The translations under genes and the position numbers were made by a program. This document shows positions 3,406-49,938 of a stretch of DNA of 64,000 bases, piece after piece. The notes beneath the pieces are model-generated. The model saw only the letters and a program-made list of their open reading frames with translations, had not been told where the DNA came from and searched no databases. This DNA comes from an uncultured delta proteobacterium (GTDB lineage: Bacteria > Myxococcota_A > Polyangia > Fen-1088), in contig CAVWIP010000012.1 in assembly GCA_963755125.1 (NCBI GenBank), positions 150,602-214,601 of the forward strand, read 5' to 3'. Position 1 is the first letter of the stretch, and every line of letters starts with the position of its first letter.

Positions 3406-4611
3406 ATGAAAACTCAACTTGCACTCGCCGCCGGTTTCGTCGGGCTTCTTGCGGCCCGCTCGGTGTTTCCCTGTGGCGCGCCCTTTGGCACAGGAATATC
3501 GGCCAATCCGCAGCAGGACATCATCGTGGCCTACAAGAACGGCGTGGAGACCTACGTGTTCCAGCCCACGTTCTGCGGCACCGCGACCGATTTTGGGCTG
3601 ATCCTGCCTGTCCCTTCAACTCTCACAGCGTCCCCGGCCCTGTCCGACCAGCAAGCCTTCACCACCGTCGATAGCCTGTCGCAGCCGGAGTACATCACCA
3701 ACACCGTTTGTATGGGAGGGACCACAGGTAGTGGGACGGGGGGGCTGGCCGGCGCGGCCGGAGCGCCCGGGTCGAACGCCGGCGCCACCGTGGTTTCGAG
3801 TGGCCGGGTGGGCTTCCTCGATTGGGTTCAGCTAAAGGCTGATACCGTGGCGTCGTTCACGGATTGGCTGAACAGCAACGGGTATCCTTACGGCACGGCA
3901 GCCTCCAACGTATTTTCCTACTACGTGCAGGAGGGCTGGTACTTCGTGGCGTTCAGGATCAGCCAGGGGGCAGTGCCGGACGGCGGGAGCGGCGTGTATT
4001 GCAATGCCCTGGGTCCGGTCGAGCTGTCGTTCACGTCCACTGTGCCGGTCGTGCCCTCGCGCATGGCGACTGCCGGCACCGTCGCGTCGTCGGGTTCCTA
4101 TTCCTACGCCTTTTCTTGGCGCATCTTTGGCATCACCACGGGCGACCAGCAACTGGCCTTTACCGATGGCGCGAACGCCAATCGGGTACTTGGATACTCG
4201 GGCGCACTGGCCGCGGCCGATGTGACTTCTTTGGCGGGTCTGGCCCAGACGGGCGACCGTCTGACCAAGCTGACTTTGACTTTTTCCTACGGATCGACGG
4301 ACCCGGACGTCGGCCTGTCTTTGGCCGCCGCGAGTGACTATCGGCAGATAATATACAACACCCAGTATATCTATTGCCCCGATGCCGGCACTGACACTCC
4401 TGTCGACGCAACTCATGTGACGCCAGCGGCAGACGCAGGAACCAAGCCCGATGCGCTACCCGCACTGGCAAGTGTCGACGCCGCCGGCACCGCTGGGATT
4501 TCTGCCAGGGGCAGCGGCTGCTCGATGGCGACAGGCTCCGCTTCCGGCGGCTGCTTCGCTCTGGCCTTGCTCGGGTTGGTGGTCGCTGTCCGGCTGCGCA
4601 GGCGGCGATAG
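3406..4611 (+). CDS. Secreted protein of unknown function with a C-terminal MYXO-CTERM sorting signal. It is translationally coupled to the FGE-family gene.
   Basis: The ATG at 3406 sits 2 nt after the upstream TGA, with the RBS gaagggag. Signal peptide MKTQLALAAGFVGLLAARSVFPCGAPFG. The C-terminus GSGCSMATGSASGGCFALALLGLVVAVRLRRRR (Gly/Cys motif, hydrophobic helix, Arg tail) matches MYXO-CTERM. The ORF-track start at 3007 was rejected because it overlaps the FGE gene in another frame. Confidence 0.75.
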   Translation: MKTQLALAAGFVGLLAARSVFPCGAPFGTGISANPQQDIIVAYKNGVETYVFQPTFCGTATDFGLILPVPSTLTASPALSDQQAFTTVDSLSQPEYITNTVCMGGTTGSGTGGLAGAAGAPGSNAGATVVSSGRVGFLDWVQLKADTVASFTDWLNSNGYPYGTAASNVFSYYVQEGWYFVAFRISQGAVPDGGSGVYCNALGPVELSFTSTVPVVPSRMATAGTVASSGSYSYAFSWRIFGITTGDQQLAFTDGANANRVLGYSGALAAADVTSLAGLAQTGDRLTKLTLTFSYGSTDPDVGLSLAAASDYRQIIYNTQYIYCPDAGTDTPVDATHVTPAADAGTKPDALPALASVDAAGTAGISARGSGCSMATGSASGGCFALALLGLVVAVRLRRRR

Positions 4612-45742: not shown

Positions 45743-46148
45743 GGATGGACCTCGCTCGGTGACGCCCACCTCGGAAGAATTCGGCGGGCAATTGGTGGAA
45801 GAACTGCTCAAATGTTTTGGTGTCGCCGACCCGGCCGCACGACCGTAAGCTAGTGTCTAGGTGTTTGCGGGGCTTCAACTCGAAAACCGTGGCGATCGTG
45901 TCGGAGACGCTACCGTCGGTGTCTGGCCTGGAAACCGCGCCATCCTAGGCACGCGGATCTGAGGTGTCAAGCGAGAACATCCCACCCCGGACCGCGCTCA
46001 ACTACGCGAATCTTCGGAACAATATGTCGCCCCGCGGGGCTGCGATTCCCTGTTGACAGGAGCCTTCGCGACGCTAAGATGACCGACGATTGCTACCTCA
46101 CCGTGCTTGCCCTCGGCTTCGGCCGAACCGGACAGGAGGAGTCCTTCG

Positions 46149-46646
46149 ATGAGCCCGAAACTGCGTATCCCGTCTCGCCGCCTGTGGATGGCGCTTGTTC
46201 GTGTCTCCTTGCTTGGAGCGTCCCTTCTCGCCCTTGCCGTCTTTGGCAGCATGGCCTGCGAGGACAACGGGATTGGCCGTCCCTGCGATATCTTGGTTGA
46301 CGCTGGTCAGACGCAGGCCGTTTACAATCCTCAGGCGCTCGAGTGCCCGAGCCGGATCTGCCTCAAGCCCGTCAATGAGAACAGTGCGAACGTAACGACT
46401 GGCCCCTACTGCTCGGCGACATGCTCAAGCGATAGCGACTGCAGTGGACAGAAGAAGGACATGAGTGACAATAGCGACCACCGCTGCGCAACAGGCTACG
46501 CCTGCGGTGTGGCCTTCGTTGTCGGCGCGCTCTGCTGCCAGAAGCTCTGCCTCTGCAAGGACTTCCTGGTCGCCGGGGCCGGTCTGACGACGCCGACCGC
46601 CTGTGACCCCAAGCTGAACAACGGAAAGACGGCCTGCGATCAGTAG
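46149..46646 (+). CDS. Cys-rich lipoprotein (165 aa, 16 Cys), hypothetical
   Basis: RBS aggagg, ATG 46149. Lipobox LAVFGSMAC, then a Cys-rich mature part (CATGYACGVAFVVGALCCQKLCLCKDF...). Confidence 0.55.
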   Translation: MSPKLRIPSRRLWMALVRVSLLGASLLALAVFGSMACEDNGIGRPCDILVDAGQTQAVYNPQALECPSRICLKPVNENSANVTTGPYCSATCSSDSDCSGQKKDMSDNSDHRCATGYACGVAFVVGALCCQKLCLCKDFLVAGAGLTTPTACDPKLNNGKTACDQ

Positions 46647-46658
46647 CGAACGGCGGGG

Positions 46659-47041
46659 ATGGGTGCCCGCGCAACGCGGGACGCGCGGCGGTTGGTGCAC
46701 GCGCCGAGGCTCTGGCTGCCGCCCTGCTGGAAGCGCGTGGCTATCGCATCGTCGAGCGAAACTGGCGCCGCCCCCAGGGAGAATTGGACTTGGTGGCGGA
46801 ATATCGAGGCATCCTTGTCTTCGTCGAGGTCCGCTCGCGCACGGGTGAGGAACGCGGGCATCCTCTTGAAACGGTGAATGCTCGCAAGCGAGCCCGCGTC
46901 GTGCGCGCCGCTCGCCTGTACCTGGAAGACAACCAGCCCACTGCTACGGCATTCCGTTTCGATGTCGTAGGGGTGACCTTCGCTTGCGACGGGGCTCCGC
47001 CCACAATGACTCACGTGGAAGACGCGTTTCGCGTGGGTTGA
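46659..47041 (+). CDS. yraN: YraN-family (UPF0102) endonuclease. The 5' end is disrupted by an apparent single-base frameshift.
   Basis: Frame 2 encodes ...GARAEALAAALLEARGYRIVERNWRRPQGELDLVAEYRGILVFVEVRSRTGE...RFDVVGV, the YraN signature. The only upstream ATG (46659, MGARATRDARRL) is in frame 0. Restoring one G in ttgg(g)tgca gives MGARATRDARRLGARAEALAAALLEARGY..., a complete 128-aa YraN. Confidence 0.6.
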
Positions 47042-47047
47042 GGCTGT

Positions 47048-47197
47048 TCACTCACATGGGAACCCTGGAAGGGTTCCCATCCCCTCCCGCGATGGTCCGC
47101 CGCCGGCGAGGGCGCGCGCGAAGCGCGCGGGGTGGGCAGGGTGGCGGGTCGTCCCAAAGTCCCCGCAGGGGGCAAAGCCGGCGGGCTCCCCACGCGA
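47048..47197. repeat. Palindromic MITE/REP-like element, copy A. It fills the yraN / rplS convergent intergenic region.
   Basis: Perfect 25-bp palindrome ATGGGAACCCTGGAAGGGTTCCCAT (47056-47080), then a conserved body CCCCTCCCGCGATGGTCCGCCGCCGGCGAGGGCGCGCGCGAAGCGCGCGGGGTGGGCAGGGTGG...AAGTCCCCGCAGGGGG. The body is shared with copy B and, in reverse orientation, with copy C. Confidence 0.75.
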
Positions 47198-47632
47198 CTA
47201 CACCACGCTGGGCGCTTCGCCGTCGATAGCAGGAACGGCCTCTTCGGGAGCCGAACCGCCAACCTCTCCCTGCTCCACAACGCTGCGCTCACCCTTGATA
47301 CGCGCCGCGCGGCCCTGCAGATCCCGCAGATAGTTGAGACGAGCCCGGCGTACGCGCCCGCGCTGCACAATCTCAATCTTCTCGATCCGGCTCGTGTGCA
47401 GAGGGAAGATGCGCTCGACGCCCACGCCATACGAGATCTTGCGCACAGTAAACGATGCGCAAGCCGAGCCGGAGCGCCGGTCAATGCACACACCCTCGAA
47501 TATCTGGACGCGCTCCTTTTCGCCTTCTTTGATCAGGGTGTGAACCCTAACGCTGTCACCCGGCCGAAAATCCGGAATGTTGTCCCGCCGGTAGGCATTC
47601 TCGATCGCTCGTATCAGGGGGTGCGTGCTCAT
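47198..47632 (-). CDS. rplS: 50S ribosomal protein L19, with a C-terminal extension of about 30 aa
   Basis: [50 protein letters not shown]...[22 protein letters not shown], then an extra tail [28 protein letters not shown]. The start was trimmed to ATG 47630-47632. Confidence 0.85.
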
Positions 47633-47689
47633 GGGTCCGCTCGATGCAGGGGCGTATTTACTACGCGGAAGGAGGCCGGCAGTCAACAC

Positions 47690-47977
47690 TTACATGGGAA
47701 CCCTGGGAGGGTTCCCATATCCCTCTCGCGCTCTGGCTCTGGCGGGCTAAGCCCGCCTTCGCCTACGCGATCATGGGAACACAAAGACCTCGCCTAGCCC
47801 TTCGGCCCCCACACCTGCCCCCCCCGACGCTCGCTTCTCTCGGCCTCACCTCCCGCGATGGTGCGCCACGCGCGGCACTGGCAGAGCGGCGGGCAACGAG
47901 GGCGCGCGCGCGGCGCGCGGGGCAGGCAGGGTGGGGTTGTTGGTCCCGAAGTCCCCGAAGGGGGAGCCCGCCTTCGC
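47690..47977. repeat. Palindromic MITE/REP-like element, copy B. This composite or nested copy fills the trmD-rplS intergenic region.
   Basis: Palindrome ATGGGAACCCTGGGAGGGTTCCCAT (47694-47718). A half-palindrome ATGGGAAC lies at 47774. The body CTCCCGCGATGGTGCGCC...CGAGGGCGCGCGCGCGGCGCGCGGGGCAGGCAGGGTGG...AAGTCCCCGAAGGGGG is homologous to copy A. A 22-bp direct repeat GCCCGCCTTCGCCTACGCGATC at 47751-47772 and 47966-47987 flanks about 195 bp, resembling a target-site duplication. Confidence 0.7.
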
Positions 47978-48763
47978 CTACGCGATCCCATCCAGCTCGG
48001 CGAGCAGGGCCCTGTCTTCTTCGGTCAGCGGGTACCGGTCGATCAGGTCAGGACGGCGCAACAACGTACGCCGCAGTGCTTCTCGCCGACGCCAACGTGC
48101 CACTCGGGCATGGTTACCTGAAAGCAACACGTCTGGAACACCCAGCCCGCGGTAGACGGGAGGCCGGGTCCACTGAGGAAACTCCAGTCGGCCGACCGAG
48201 AAAGACTCTTCCACCACCGACTCCCCGCAACCGAGCACTCCCGGCACCAAGCGCGCGGTGGCCTCGATGATGACAGCGGCCGCAACCTCGCCGCCAGCCA
48301 ACACATAATCCCCGATGCTCACCGACTCGTCGGCGTAGATCTGGGCGATGCGCTCGTCCAGACCCTCATAGCGGCCGCAGATGAGCATGATGTGGCCGCG
48401 AGCCGTCAAGTCTGCGGCACACTTCTGGTCGAACAGTCGCCCTGACGGTGTGAGCAGGATCCGATACGCTCGCCCGCGCCGAGTCTCGACATCGTCAATG
48501 GCCGCCGCGACGGGTTCCGGGCGCAAGATCATGCCAGGTCCGCCGCCGTAGGGCGAGTCGTCGACCTGACGATGGCGGCCTGGCGCGAAGTCTCGCGGGT
48601 TGGTTCTCTCGACGGAGATGAGGCCGCTGCTGACAGCCTTTCCCAGCAGGCTGGCCTGGAGGAAGGAAGTGAACACCTCGGGAAACAGGGTGACAATCTC
48701 AACCACAAGCCGAGGTGACGTCGCGCCACCAACGTCGTCTGTGTCGAGCCGACCATCACTCAT
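47978..48763 (-). CDS. trmD: tRNA (guanine37-N1)-methyltransferase
   Basis: Motifs ...VVEIVTLFPEVF..., DDSPYGGGPGMIL, IMLICGRYEGLDERI and the SIGDYVLAGGE knot motif. The start is ATG 48763, or the internal GTG of LVVEIV. Confidence 0.85.
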   Translation of the reverse strand: MSDGRLDTDDVGGATSPRLVVEIVTLFPEVFTSFLQASLLGKAVSSGLISVERTNPRDFAPGRHRQVDDSPYGGGPGMILRPEPVAAAIDDVETRRGRAYRILLTPSGRLFDQKCAADLTARGHIMLICGRYEGLDERIAQIYADESVSIGDYVLAGGEVAAAVIIEATARLVPGVLGCGESVVEESFSVGRLEFPQWTRPPVYRGLGVPDVLLSGNHARVARWRRREALRRTLLRRPDLIDRYPLTEEDRALLAELDGIA

Positions 48764-49358
48764 GAGGATCAACCACCACTCGTTTCGTCGAACGGTCGAT
48801 CGCCACAATGAACTCGGGCACCGCGGGAAGCAACCGCTCGTCCGTCTCCCCGCTCCCAATCACCATGACGTCGTGACCGCCGTTCCAGAACACCTTACGC
48901 ACAACGCCCAGACTGCATCCCTCGCTGTCTTCGACCAGGCAGCCGACCAGGTCCTCCACGTAGAACTCGCCCGCTCCCAACGGCGGAAGCGTCGTCCTAC
49001 GCAACCACAACTCCCGCCCGGTCAGAGACGCCGCCTCCTTTCGCGTCGAAATGCCCTCCAGCCTGAGCAGAAATCCGTCGACAATTCGCCGAATCGCCGT
49101 GACCGTGGCCAGCGTTTCCGAGCCCGGTCGCGTGGAGAGCCCGCCGACTTCGTCGGCGGCGGACCGCCGCGGGAGGGTTTGGGAACCCTTCCGGGGTTCC
49201 CATGTCAACCCCCCAATCGCCACCTCTAGCGGCAGCGCAACGGTGTCCAGTCGCCAACCGCTGGAGTGAAAAGGGCGGAGGCTGATCTCGCCAGTAGTGC
49301 CGTGCGGCCGCCCCAAGGTTCCAAAGGGCAGACTCTCGGAAAGCACGCTGTGACCCAC
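48756..49358 (-). CDS. rimM: Ribosome maturation factor RimM, carrying an in-frame 75-bp repeat-element insertion
   Basis: GTG start at 49356-49358. N-terminal barrel LGRPHGTTGEISLRPF, PRC barrel GAGEFYVEDLVGCLVEDSEGCSLGVVRKV...DVMVIG. An extra segment LTWEPRKGSQTLPRRSAADEVGGLS is encoded by repeat copy C. Confidence 0.8.
   Translation of the reverse strand: MGHSVLSESLPFGTLGRPHGTTGEISLRPFHSSGWRLDTVALPLEVAIGGLTWEPRKGSQTLPRRSAADEVGGLSTRPGSETLATVTAIRRIVDGFLLRLEGISTRKEAASLTGRELWLRRTTLPPLGAGEFYVEDLVGCLVEDSEGCSLGVVRKVFWNGGHDVMVIGSGETDERLLPAVPEFIVAIDRSTKRVVVDPHE
49135..49210. repeat. Palindromic MITE/REP-like element, copy C, in reverse orientation and inserted in-frame within rimM
   Basis: The plus strand ...GTCGGCGGCGGACCGCCGCGGGAGGGTTTGGGAACCCTTCCGGGGTTCCCATG is the reverse complement of the copy-A core (CATGGGAACCC..GGGTTCCCA-CCCTCCCGCG-TGGTCCGCCGCCG). 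The stem is GGGAACCC/GGGTTCCC with a 5-nt loop. Confidence 0.7.
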
Positions 49359-49382: not shown

Positions 49383-49667
49383 CTACTCGAGGATCTCCAA
49401 AATCGCACGTCGCTTCATCTTTGCTGAAGCGGCGGAAAGAACCGTGCGCAAAGCCTTGGCGGTGCGGCCTTGGCGCCCGATGACCCGTCCCAAGTCGGAT
49501 TCGGCCACCTTCAACTCGAAGACTGTACCGTCCTGCTCCTCGATTTCCTCGACCGCTACCTCATCGGGGTGCTCCACCAGCGCGCGCGCCAGATAGAGGA
49601 CCAGATCGCGCAGCGGAGGCGCTTTCTCGGAACCTCCCACGGAGGGGGACTCGGCGCCCTCTGTCAC
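49383..49667 (-). CDS. KH-domain RNA-binding protein (YlqC/UPF0109-like)
   Basis: KH motif LKVAESDLGRVIGRQGRTAKALRTVL. This is the typical gene between rpsP and rimM. Confidence 0.75.
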   Translation of the reverse strand: MTEGAESPSVGGSEKAPPLRDLVLYLARALVEHPDEVAVEEIEEQDGTVFELKVAESDLGRVIGRQGRTAKALRTVLSAASAKMKRRAILEILE

Positions 49668-49674
49668 GGGAGCA

Positions 49675-49938
49675 CTACTCGGTCGGCGCCGCTACGGTTG
49701 CGCGCCTGACCTTCTTGATGAGCTGGCCGACGGTCTCGCTAGGAACGGCCCCCATGGCCAACCAGTGGTCGACACGGGCCATGTCGAACTTGACCTCGGG
49801 CGGGCTACGCCGCGGGTCGTAGATTCCAACCTGCTCGATCAGACGTCCATCTCGCGGACTCCGGCGATCCGAGGCGACAACGCGATAGTGCGGGGACTTC
49901 TTTCCTCCGCCGCGGGTGAGTCGTAGTGTGACGGCCAT
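49675..49938 (-). CDS. rpsP: 30S ribosomal protein S16
   Basis: MAVTLRLTRGGGKKSPHYRVVASDRRSPRDGRLIEQVGIYDP. Confidence 0.9.
   Translation of the reverse strand: MAVTLRLTRGGGKKSPHYRVVASDRRSPRDGRLIEQVGIYDPRRSPPEVKFDMARVDHWLAMGAVPSETVGQLIKKVRRATVAAPTE

Follow-up and report, generated by a model that had tools for sequence, protein, structure and literature searches.

The rpsP-rimM-trmD-rplS operon of an uncultured member of the Polyangia is interspersed with palindromic repeats, which raises the question whether these are signals serving the operon, products of local duplication or members of a mobile family. We followed this question in the window, i.e., the whole 64-kb stretch of DNA that was analysed, and in related metagenome-assembled genomes (MAGs), whose loci and proteins carry L and P numbers below. 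The repeats of the window probably belong to a family of small mobile elements, non-coding and non-autonomous, that spans the lineage of these uncultured Polyangia, and no host function needs to be assumed for them.

Repeat copies in the operon

The operon is encoded on the minus strand and comprises rpsP (49938..49675), a KH-domain gene (49667..49383), rimM (49358..48756; PF01782/PF24986 in relatives), trmD (48760..47978; PF01746) and rplS for ribosomal protein L19 (47632..47198; PF01245, E 6.7e-45). A UPF0102/yraN gene runs convergent to it and ends at 47041 (stop codon 47039-47041). Four copies of one repeat family, denoted A, B1, B2 and C, lie in the 64-kb window, all of them within this operon and within a span of 2.2 kb.

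Copy A (47051-47197, plus strand) is a long form that scores 66 bits with the covariance model of the family. As the first-pass annotation had recognized, it sits between convergent genes, i.e., it fills the gap between the UPF0102/yraN stop and the rplS stop (47198-47200), the latter adjoining its 3' end. The trmD-rplS spacer holds copy B1 (47689-47772, plus strand; 76 bits), a short form of the 'type II' subfamily, directly followed by the composite copy B2 (47773-47985, plus strand), which was read from the sequence and from self-comparison. The last two codons of trmD and its stop (CTA, 47978-47980) are located inside the 3' end of B2. Copy C (49208..49128, minus strand; core 49203..49129) is a short form that lies in frame inside rimM and is the best-scoring site of the window (85 bits). 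The earlier description of the elements as intergenic is incomplete, as it missed copy C and the intragenic part of the family quantified below. A filter-free search of the 64 kb with the covariance model found no sites beyond C, B1 and A.

Two further observations concern the neighbourhood of these copies. Just upstream of rplS and touching the left end of B1, the minus strand reads TTGACT, a 17-nt spacer and TAGTAA (47658-47686), which is also conserved in L117 and looks like a dedicated rplS promoter, but fails the consensus filter of the promoter scan. Furthermore, a 179-aa open reading frame (ORF) with a signal-like N-terminus and many cysteines (46107-46646, plus strand) is found just upstream of the UPF0102 gene. 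Its position is kept in the syntenic loci, where the products have 165-176 aa and no Pfam hit.

Anatomy of the repeat unit

The basic unit measures 81 nt, i.e., 27 codons, and is composed of a 5' pentanucleotide, a 75-nt core and a final A. The pentanucleotide is variable (consensus TTGAN) and precedes the first hairpin P1, which consists of ATGGGAACCC, a 5-nt loop and GGGTTCCCA and is invariant with 10-11 bp. Next comes the linker (A/T)NCCCTCCCGCG, also written CCCTCCCGCG, which is near-invariant though it lies outside the search pattern. It leads into the second hairpin P3 of about 14 bp, whose sequence differs between subfamilies while its pairing is kept. The P3 triloop has the form C-RNA-G in 65/76 copies, most subfamilies show an internal loop, and the core closes with CGCG before the final A.

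In the window, P1 reads ATGGGAACCC-TGGAA-GGGTTCCCAT in copy A (47056-47080) and ATGGGAACCC-TGGGA-GGGTTCCCAT in copy B1 (47694-47718), such that both differ at one loop base only. This corroborates the palindrome reported in the first-pass annotation: the P1 hairpins of the window have stems of 10-11 bp and loops of 3-5 nt, and dinucleotide shuffles of the window produced 0 matches. Copy A continues the order CTCAC and P1 with the linker CCCCTCCCGCG, a P3 whose loop bears an additional module, and CGCG-A. Copy B1 has the P3 CTCTGGCTCTGGCGGGC-TAA-GCCCGCCTTCGCCTA, and copy C is exactly TTGAC, the 75-nt core and A, summing to 81 nt.

To assess the structure, 83 distinct short copies from related genomes were aligned almost without gaps, 65/83 of them having the 75-nt core. 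Among 111 distinct model hits, 98.1% of the cells are paired compared to 89.5% in shuffles. The covariation score of 0.201 contrasts with 0.054 for shuffled data (reached by 0/500 shuffles) and with 0.03-0.06 when pairing partners are slid. Double-sided changes occur at 6/7 inner P3 pairs (156 cells). G-U pairs are found in only 6/2326 paired cells and make up 1.3-2.8% of the predicted P3 pairs. Triloops of the observed type are very stable in DNA. Since G-U is almost absent and the triloops are DNA-stable, these data fit a hairpin that is selected in DNA rather than RNA, while the high G+C content may partly explain the rarity of G-U.

We also considered whether the 5' and 3' flanks close up into a helix, and rejected this: the covariation seen at positions -2/+2 and -3/+3 does not follow base pairing, and we read it as subfamily-specific termini.

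With all frames read, the consensus TTGAC form contains a stop codon in only one of six frames, namely the TGA within TTGAC. In-frame survival of a copy is thus possible, since the basic unit has a length divisible by three.

Inserted modules and the composite copy B

In the long forms, the P3 loop is enlarged by a G-rich module of about 66-70 nt (copy A 47107-47176; copy B2 47894-47965). It runs from GCGCGCGAAGCGCGCGGGGTGGGCAGGGTGG to GTCCCGAAGTCCCCGnAGGGGG, and its G runs look able to form a quadruplex. The reverse-complemented and hence C-rich module sits in P1 or in the linker, as in B2 (47781-47850) and also in L116, L119, L038 and L102. Of 32 module matches, 29 are at most 200 nt away from a P1 half-site. 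The remaining three are weak (L047, L051, L054) and are about 2 kb or more away from the nearest such half-site; judging by these matches, the G-rich module may also exist independently of the hairpin element.

The GC-rich body that the first-pass annotation had described for both spacers is real: 47112-47172 and 47904-47964 are 70% identical, 47080-47108 and 47846-47874 83%. Copy B is composite, as had been stated there, and resolves into two adjacent elements, i.e., the complete short copy B1 and the composite B2. The latter opens with the P1 5' half ATGGGAAC at 47773, which is the extra half-palindrome noted before, while the remainder of P1 is replaced by the C-rich module. The linker CCTCCCGCG and a P3 with the G-rich module in its loop follow.

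The direct repeat in copy B, originally given as 22 bp and compared with a target-site duplication from a nested insertion, is exact and spans 23 nt (47750-47772 and 47965-47987). The proposed duplication does not hold, since the repeat is the 3' P3 arm plus CGCGATC, which is identical in B1 and B2. That is, it is the repeated end of two family members, given that B2 has its own 5' arm TGGCAGAGCGGCGGGC and that the two 3' arms of copy B differ in sequence in L069, a syntenic MAG contig. The insertions that are actually nested are the G-rich and C-rich modules.

An exact 27-codon insertion in rimM

Copy C encodes LTWEPRKGSQTLPRRSAADEVGGLSTR in RimM. The RimM protein of the window has 200 aa and is 27 aa longer than the 173 aa of its nearest relatives. 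The empty alleles of L120 and L121 read ATTGGCGAG|CCGGG, while the filled allele of the window reads ATTGGGGGG, followed by TTGAC, the 75-nt core and A, and then CCGGGC; the site is also empty in L117. The reconstructed empty junction is GCGATTGGGGGG|CCGGGCTCGG. The comparison of filled and empty alleles thus identifies an exact insertion of 81 nt (27 codons) without any duplicated base. In the AlphaFold model, the insert (residues 52-78) forms an unstructured, low-confidence loop between two strands, with the rest of the fold being confident.

The absence of a duplication is not restricted to rimM: testing every offset across 64 solitary copies revealed no target-site duplication (maximal z 1.95). 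No retained target tetra- or pentanucleotide is present in the empty rimM sites either, i.e., TTGAC arrives with the element, and the bases outside the 81-nt unit differ between insertion sites.

In the operon tree, the window is placed beside L119, which has a long form at the identical rimM nucleotide position, whereas L116 carries a long form 3 nt further along in the same rimM loop and falls among L117 and L069, relatives with an empty site. In terms of these sequences, this indicates a rimM insertion shared by the window and L119, in which modules were probably gained or lost in place later, and a second, independent hit in the same loop in L116.

Syntenic relatives lacking the element, a comparison already suggested in the first-pass annotation, show lineage-specific presence or absence at three operon sites. 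Beside the rimM site, L117 lacks copy A, and the convergent stop codons are 8 nt apart there. L069 has a decayed orthologue of copy A as well as an orthologue of B1. The trmD-rplS spacer varies from 139 nt in L117 (one copy) over 188 nt in L116 and 346 nt in the window to 424 nt in L120, where five units are present, three of them 74-nt tandem variants. The trmD stop is located one base before the element in L117 and inside its 3' end in the window, L116 and L069.

These alleles also bear on the label MITE, which the first-pass annotation had used. A classical MITE would be an internally deleted insertion sequence of the DDE-transposase type with inverted ends, moved by cut-and-paste with duplication of its target. 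Small size, many copies, lack of coding potential and nested insertions would agree with that, and the type I ends are weakly similar in inverted orientation (CATGGGAACCC vs CGTGGGGAGCCC, 9/15 terminal positions matching). However, neither the rimM junction nor the 64 copies show a duplication, there are no terminal inverted repeats, i.e., the termini are unpaired with Watson-Crick pairs at or below expectation, and no parent element with the same ends is found in the 119 loci. We therefore drop the label and regard such an origin as quite unlikely.

Dispersal and genomic context

The P1 hairpin pattern is found in at least 115 stretches from at least 45 species-representative MAGs, in agreement with the dispersed family that had been assumed in the first-pass annotation. 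Among the matches listed, the MAGs are labelled Myxococcales, Polyangia, Myxococcota or (delta)proteobacteria; they stem from fen, peat, soil, permafrost and groundwater. With the covariance model, 112 hits at E<=1e-9 were obtained in 91 sources (90 loci and the window). The number of loci per MAG has a lower bound of 3-11, which is far below classical REP families; the syntenic MAG fen_1125, for instance, contributes four (L001, L069, L106, L110). A scan of viral contigs for the family gave 0 hits.

Given this distribution, a purely local duplication or gene conversion in the operon without any mobility is refuted as a complete explanation, and we assign it hardly any probability. It would account for all four window copies lying within 2.2 kb and for the 3' arms of B1 and B2, whose 100% identity over 23 nt suggests local homogenisation and may indeed result from local conversion. 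It does not account for copies in unrelated contexts in at least 45 genomes, nor for the exact rimM insertion and the second, independent one.

Most copies are intergenic. Where they lie between co-directional genes, both orientations are about balanced (11 vs 9), and the spacers holding copies are convergent in 7 cases and divergent in 1. A stop codon on the same strand overlaps the 5' pentanucleotide or the first base in 20/94 copies, and for 6/94 copies a stop on the opposite strand is located 0-1 nt from the 3' end. A copy in L076 (about 4440-4520) has its 3' end some 10 nt away from what resembles a tRNA gene on the opposite strand.

Such positions raise the alternative of a functional cis-acting RNA, i.e., a terminator, an attenuator or an mRNA stabiliser or processing site that is selected at gene ends. 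Stable hairpins at gene 3' ends and between operon genes are what one would expect of it, and REP elements are known to have been co-opted as cis-acting RNA signals. In addition, the complement of the reference orientation of the family is predicted to be the more stable strand in 69/76 copies and has about twice as many G-U pairs. Against this, the copies take both orientations relative to transcription, some reside inside coding sequences, and close relatives lack a copy at orthologous sites. A T-tract is missing behind the hairpins (the tails read CCCCTCCC and GTGAGTGA), and the terminator and promoter scan raised no flag at the elements. The bidirectional terminator once proposed for copy A thus lacks a T-run on either strand. 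Rfam models, searched with gathering thresholds on the whole window and with E<=1 on 46950-49300, matched nothing relevant, and the pairing is almost purely Watson-Crick. Taken together, a selected cis-acting RNA appears improbable as the origin of the family, while single copies may have been co-opted by the host secondarily.

Intragenic copies and arrays

Intragenic copies, which occur in either orientation, account for 8-25% of about 95 distinct copies: 7 satisfy a strict test, which requires the surrounding ORF to be long, supported by GC3 and open to either side, and 24 satisfy a looser one. Interrupted hosts confirmed by Pfam are SucD, a peptidase M16, a molybdopterin oxidoreductase, a dynamin-like GTPase and a DEAD-box helicase. 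Two further ORFs (L012 243-1475, L020 5038-6315) enter an element with their own 3' ends and gain a C-terminal tail (…MGTLEGSPNPPAMVRGEQSSPAPHA…) before they stop. The family thus also remodels protein C-termini, as it does for trmD in the window.

Arrays are arranged head-to-tail with periods of 74-87 nt. A DEAD/DExH helicase of L041 contains such an array (1524-1988): shortly before the DEFH motif, six 78-nt copies that are 100% identical add 156 aa in frame, and the microhomology CACGC is present at the array edge. This helicase array sits on a 929-kb long-read contig. CRISPR arrays were considered and discarded, for the whole 74-87 nt unit repeats, 'spacer' included.

Two variants were seen beside the main family. 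In L120 (4299-4659), a variant subfamily forms three 74-nt units whose P1 is weaker (ATGGGAA...TTCCCAT). A variant of lower G+C content shows the compensatory change ATGGAAACCC/GGGTTTCCA in P1, as read back from the peptides P0124 and P0128; its arrays are annotated as proteins of 258-533 aa (P0124, P0128) that cycle through all three frames.

One may ask whether the repeat is a selected peptide module, i.e., a protein repeat rather than a DNA element, given that the 27-codon unit is in frame in several proteins and often uses the same frame (WEPxKGSQTLPR in RimM, SucD and others). This reading is already contradicted by the intergenic majority and the frame diversity of the copies, the intragenic ones being found in both orientations and in differing frames, and we would be astonished to see it confirmed. 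The variation keeps base pairing instead of amino acids, the RimM insert is predicted to be disordered, and the array ORFs pass through all three frames (P0124). Peptide queries aimed at counting the in-frame hosts were uninformative: a dimer retrieved three short hypothetical ORFs only, and the 30-aa peptide of the window six representatives, two of which are unrelated repeat proteins.

Mobilisation

We return to the mobile family that we favour and to the question what would move it. Clustering the 757 GC3-validated ORFs of the 119 loci gave ordinary paralogous families and no recurrent transposase near the copies. Where the element is truncated to a 5' fragment, a normal gene follows (an ABC-F ATPase, a dehydrogenase-like ORF) and no parent element, and the inverted copy pairs in L012 and L020 enclose ordinary genes rather than a transposase. 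The orientation of copies relative to local GC skew is split into 36 vs 41 loci, where the 8-kb skew is a weak and noisy proxy of replication direction.

By analogy to REP/RAYT and IS200/IS605 systems, we infer that the element would be moved in trans by an enzyme of the HUH/Y1 type that recognises folded single-stranded DNA hairpins. Copies persist where they are harmless, i.e., at gene ends, where they often touch or supply the stop codon, in operon spacers and in tolerant protein loops. Perfect arrays would grow by replication slippage, for which the microhomology at the edge of the L041 array is an example. For the operon studied here, copies A and B would represent old insertions in its only neutral spaces, while copy C would have entered RimM's one tolerant surface loop later. 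Since only four copies are present in the 64-kb window, all within 2.2 kb, recent activity in this genome is unproven.

A bolder interpretation, which we put forward tentatively and think possible but not likely, is that of a coding-compatible transposon. Such an element of 27 codons would be essentially stop-free, would insert and perhaps excise seamlessly, would hit the same tolerant loops of essential genes repeatedly and would expand into in-frame minisatellites, driven by an enzyme not yet linked to elements of this kind. If true, the family would be a free-living, high-G+C counterpart of the Rickettsia palindromic elements, and long-read genomes together with population metagenomes of the lineage could reveal the mobilisation mechanism and the effect on protein evolution.

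Irrespective of this, existing metagenomes could reveal how the element is mobilised, since close relatives offer exact alleles of both the filled and the empty state. What makes the family interesting is mainly that the unit is exactly 27 codons long and that copies occur inside genes. In-frame colonisation of genes by palindromic sequences is known mainly from Rickettsia; according to the copies found here, palindromic selfish DNA also colonises housekeeping genes in frame outside reduced intracellular genomes, namely in the large, high-G+C genomes of myxobacteria from soil and peat. The copies also mark tolerant surface loops of proteins, provide strain-level markers and are a source of annotation errors, i.e., spurious array ORFs, shifted stop codons and 'long' orthologues.

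Comparison with known systems

A literature search for myxobacterial MITE or REP families, of incomplete coverage, found nothing specific. The family is apparently undescribed, yet of a known kind, i.e., that of small palindromic non-autonomous repeats.

It resembles the REP, BIME and REPIN elements, which are likewise short hairpin repeats without inverted ends or duplication, located at gene 3' ends and in operon spacers, often near stop codons. REP and BIME sequences also form mosaics with other short motifs, and a mobilisation in trans via single-strand hairpins is presumed for them. In contrast, the Polyangia family has no GTAG/GTGG tetranucleotide beside the hairpin, its unit combines two different hairpins with a conserved single-stranded linker, and its clusters are head-to-tail instead of alternating or inverted doublets. 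It further differs by a sizeable in-frame intragenic fraction, and no RAYT gene was found in the sequence examined.

With the IS200/IS605-derived PATEs, the family shares hairpins near both ends, asymmetric ends and the lack of inverted repeats and duplication, and its absence from close relatives is compatible with the seamless insertion and loss of such elements. Different from PATEs, however, it leaves no conserved target 5' of the insertion in the empty rimM site; there is also no detected orientation bias when using local GC skew as a proxy, and no TnpA in the 119 loci. The pneumococcal BOX and mycobacterial MIRU elements are similar in being modular, in their variable tandem copy number and in their location in operon spacers, where they sometimes overlap stop codons. 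They show no correspondence in sequence or modules, and the Polyangia family is set apart by its covarying hairpin and exact single-unit insertions.

The Rickettsia palindromic elements are found inserted in frame in unrelated housekeeping genes, the mobilising enzyme being unknown (PMC10969869). By description they are the counterpart of our intragenic copies: palindromic, in frame, and extending the protein by a peptide loop that does not destroy it. The host differs, with a free-living, high-G+C Myxococcota lineage here and a reduced alphaproteobacterial genome there. So does the element itself, which in the Polyangia has a unit of 81 nt compared to about 100-150, is intergenic in most of its copies and builds perfect intragenic tandem arrays.
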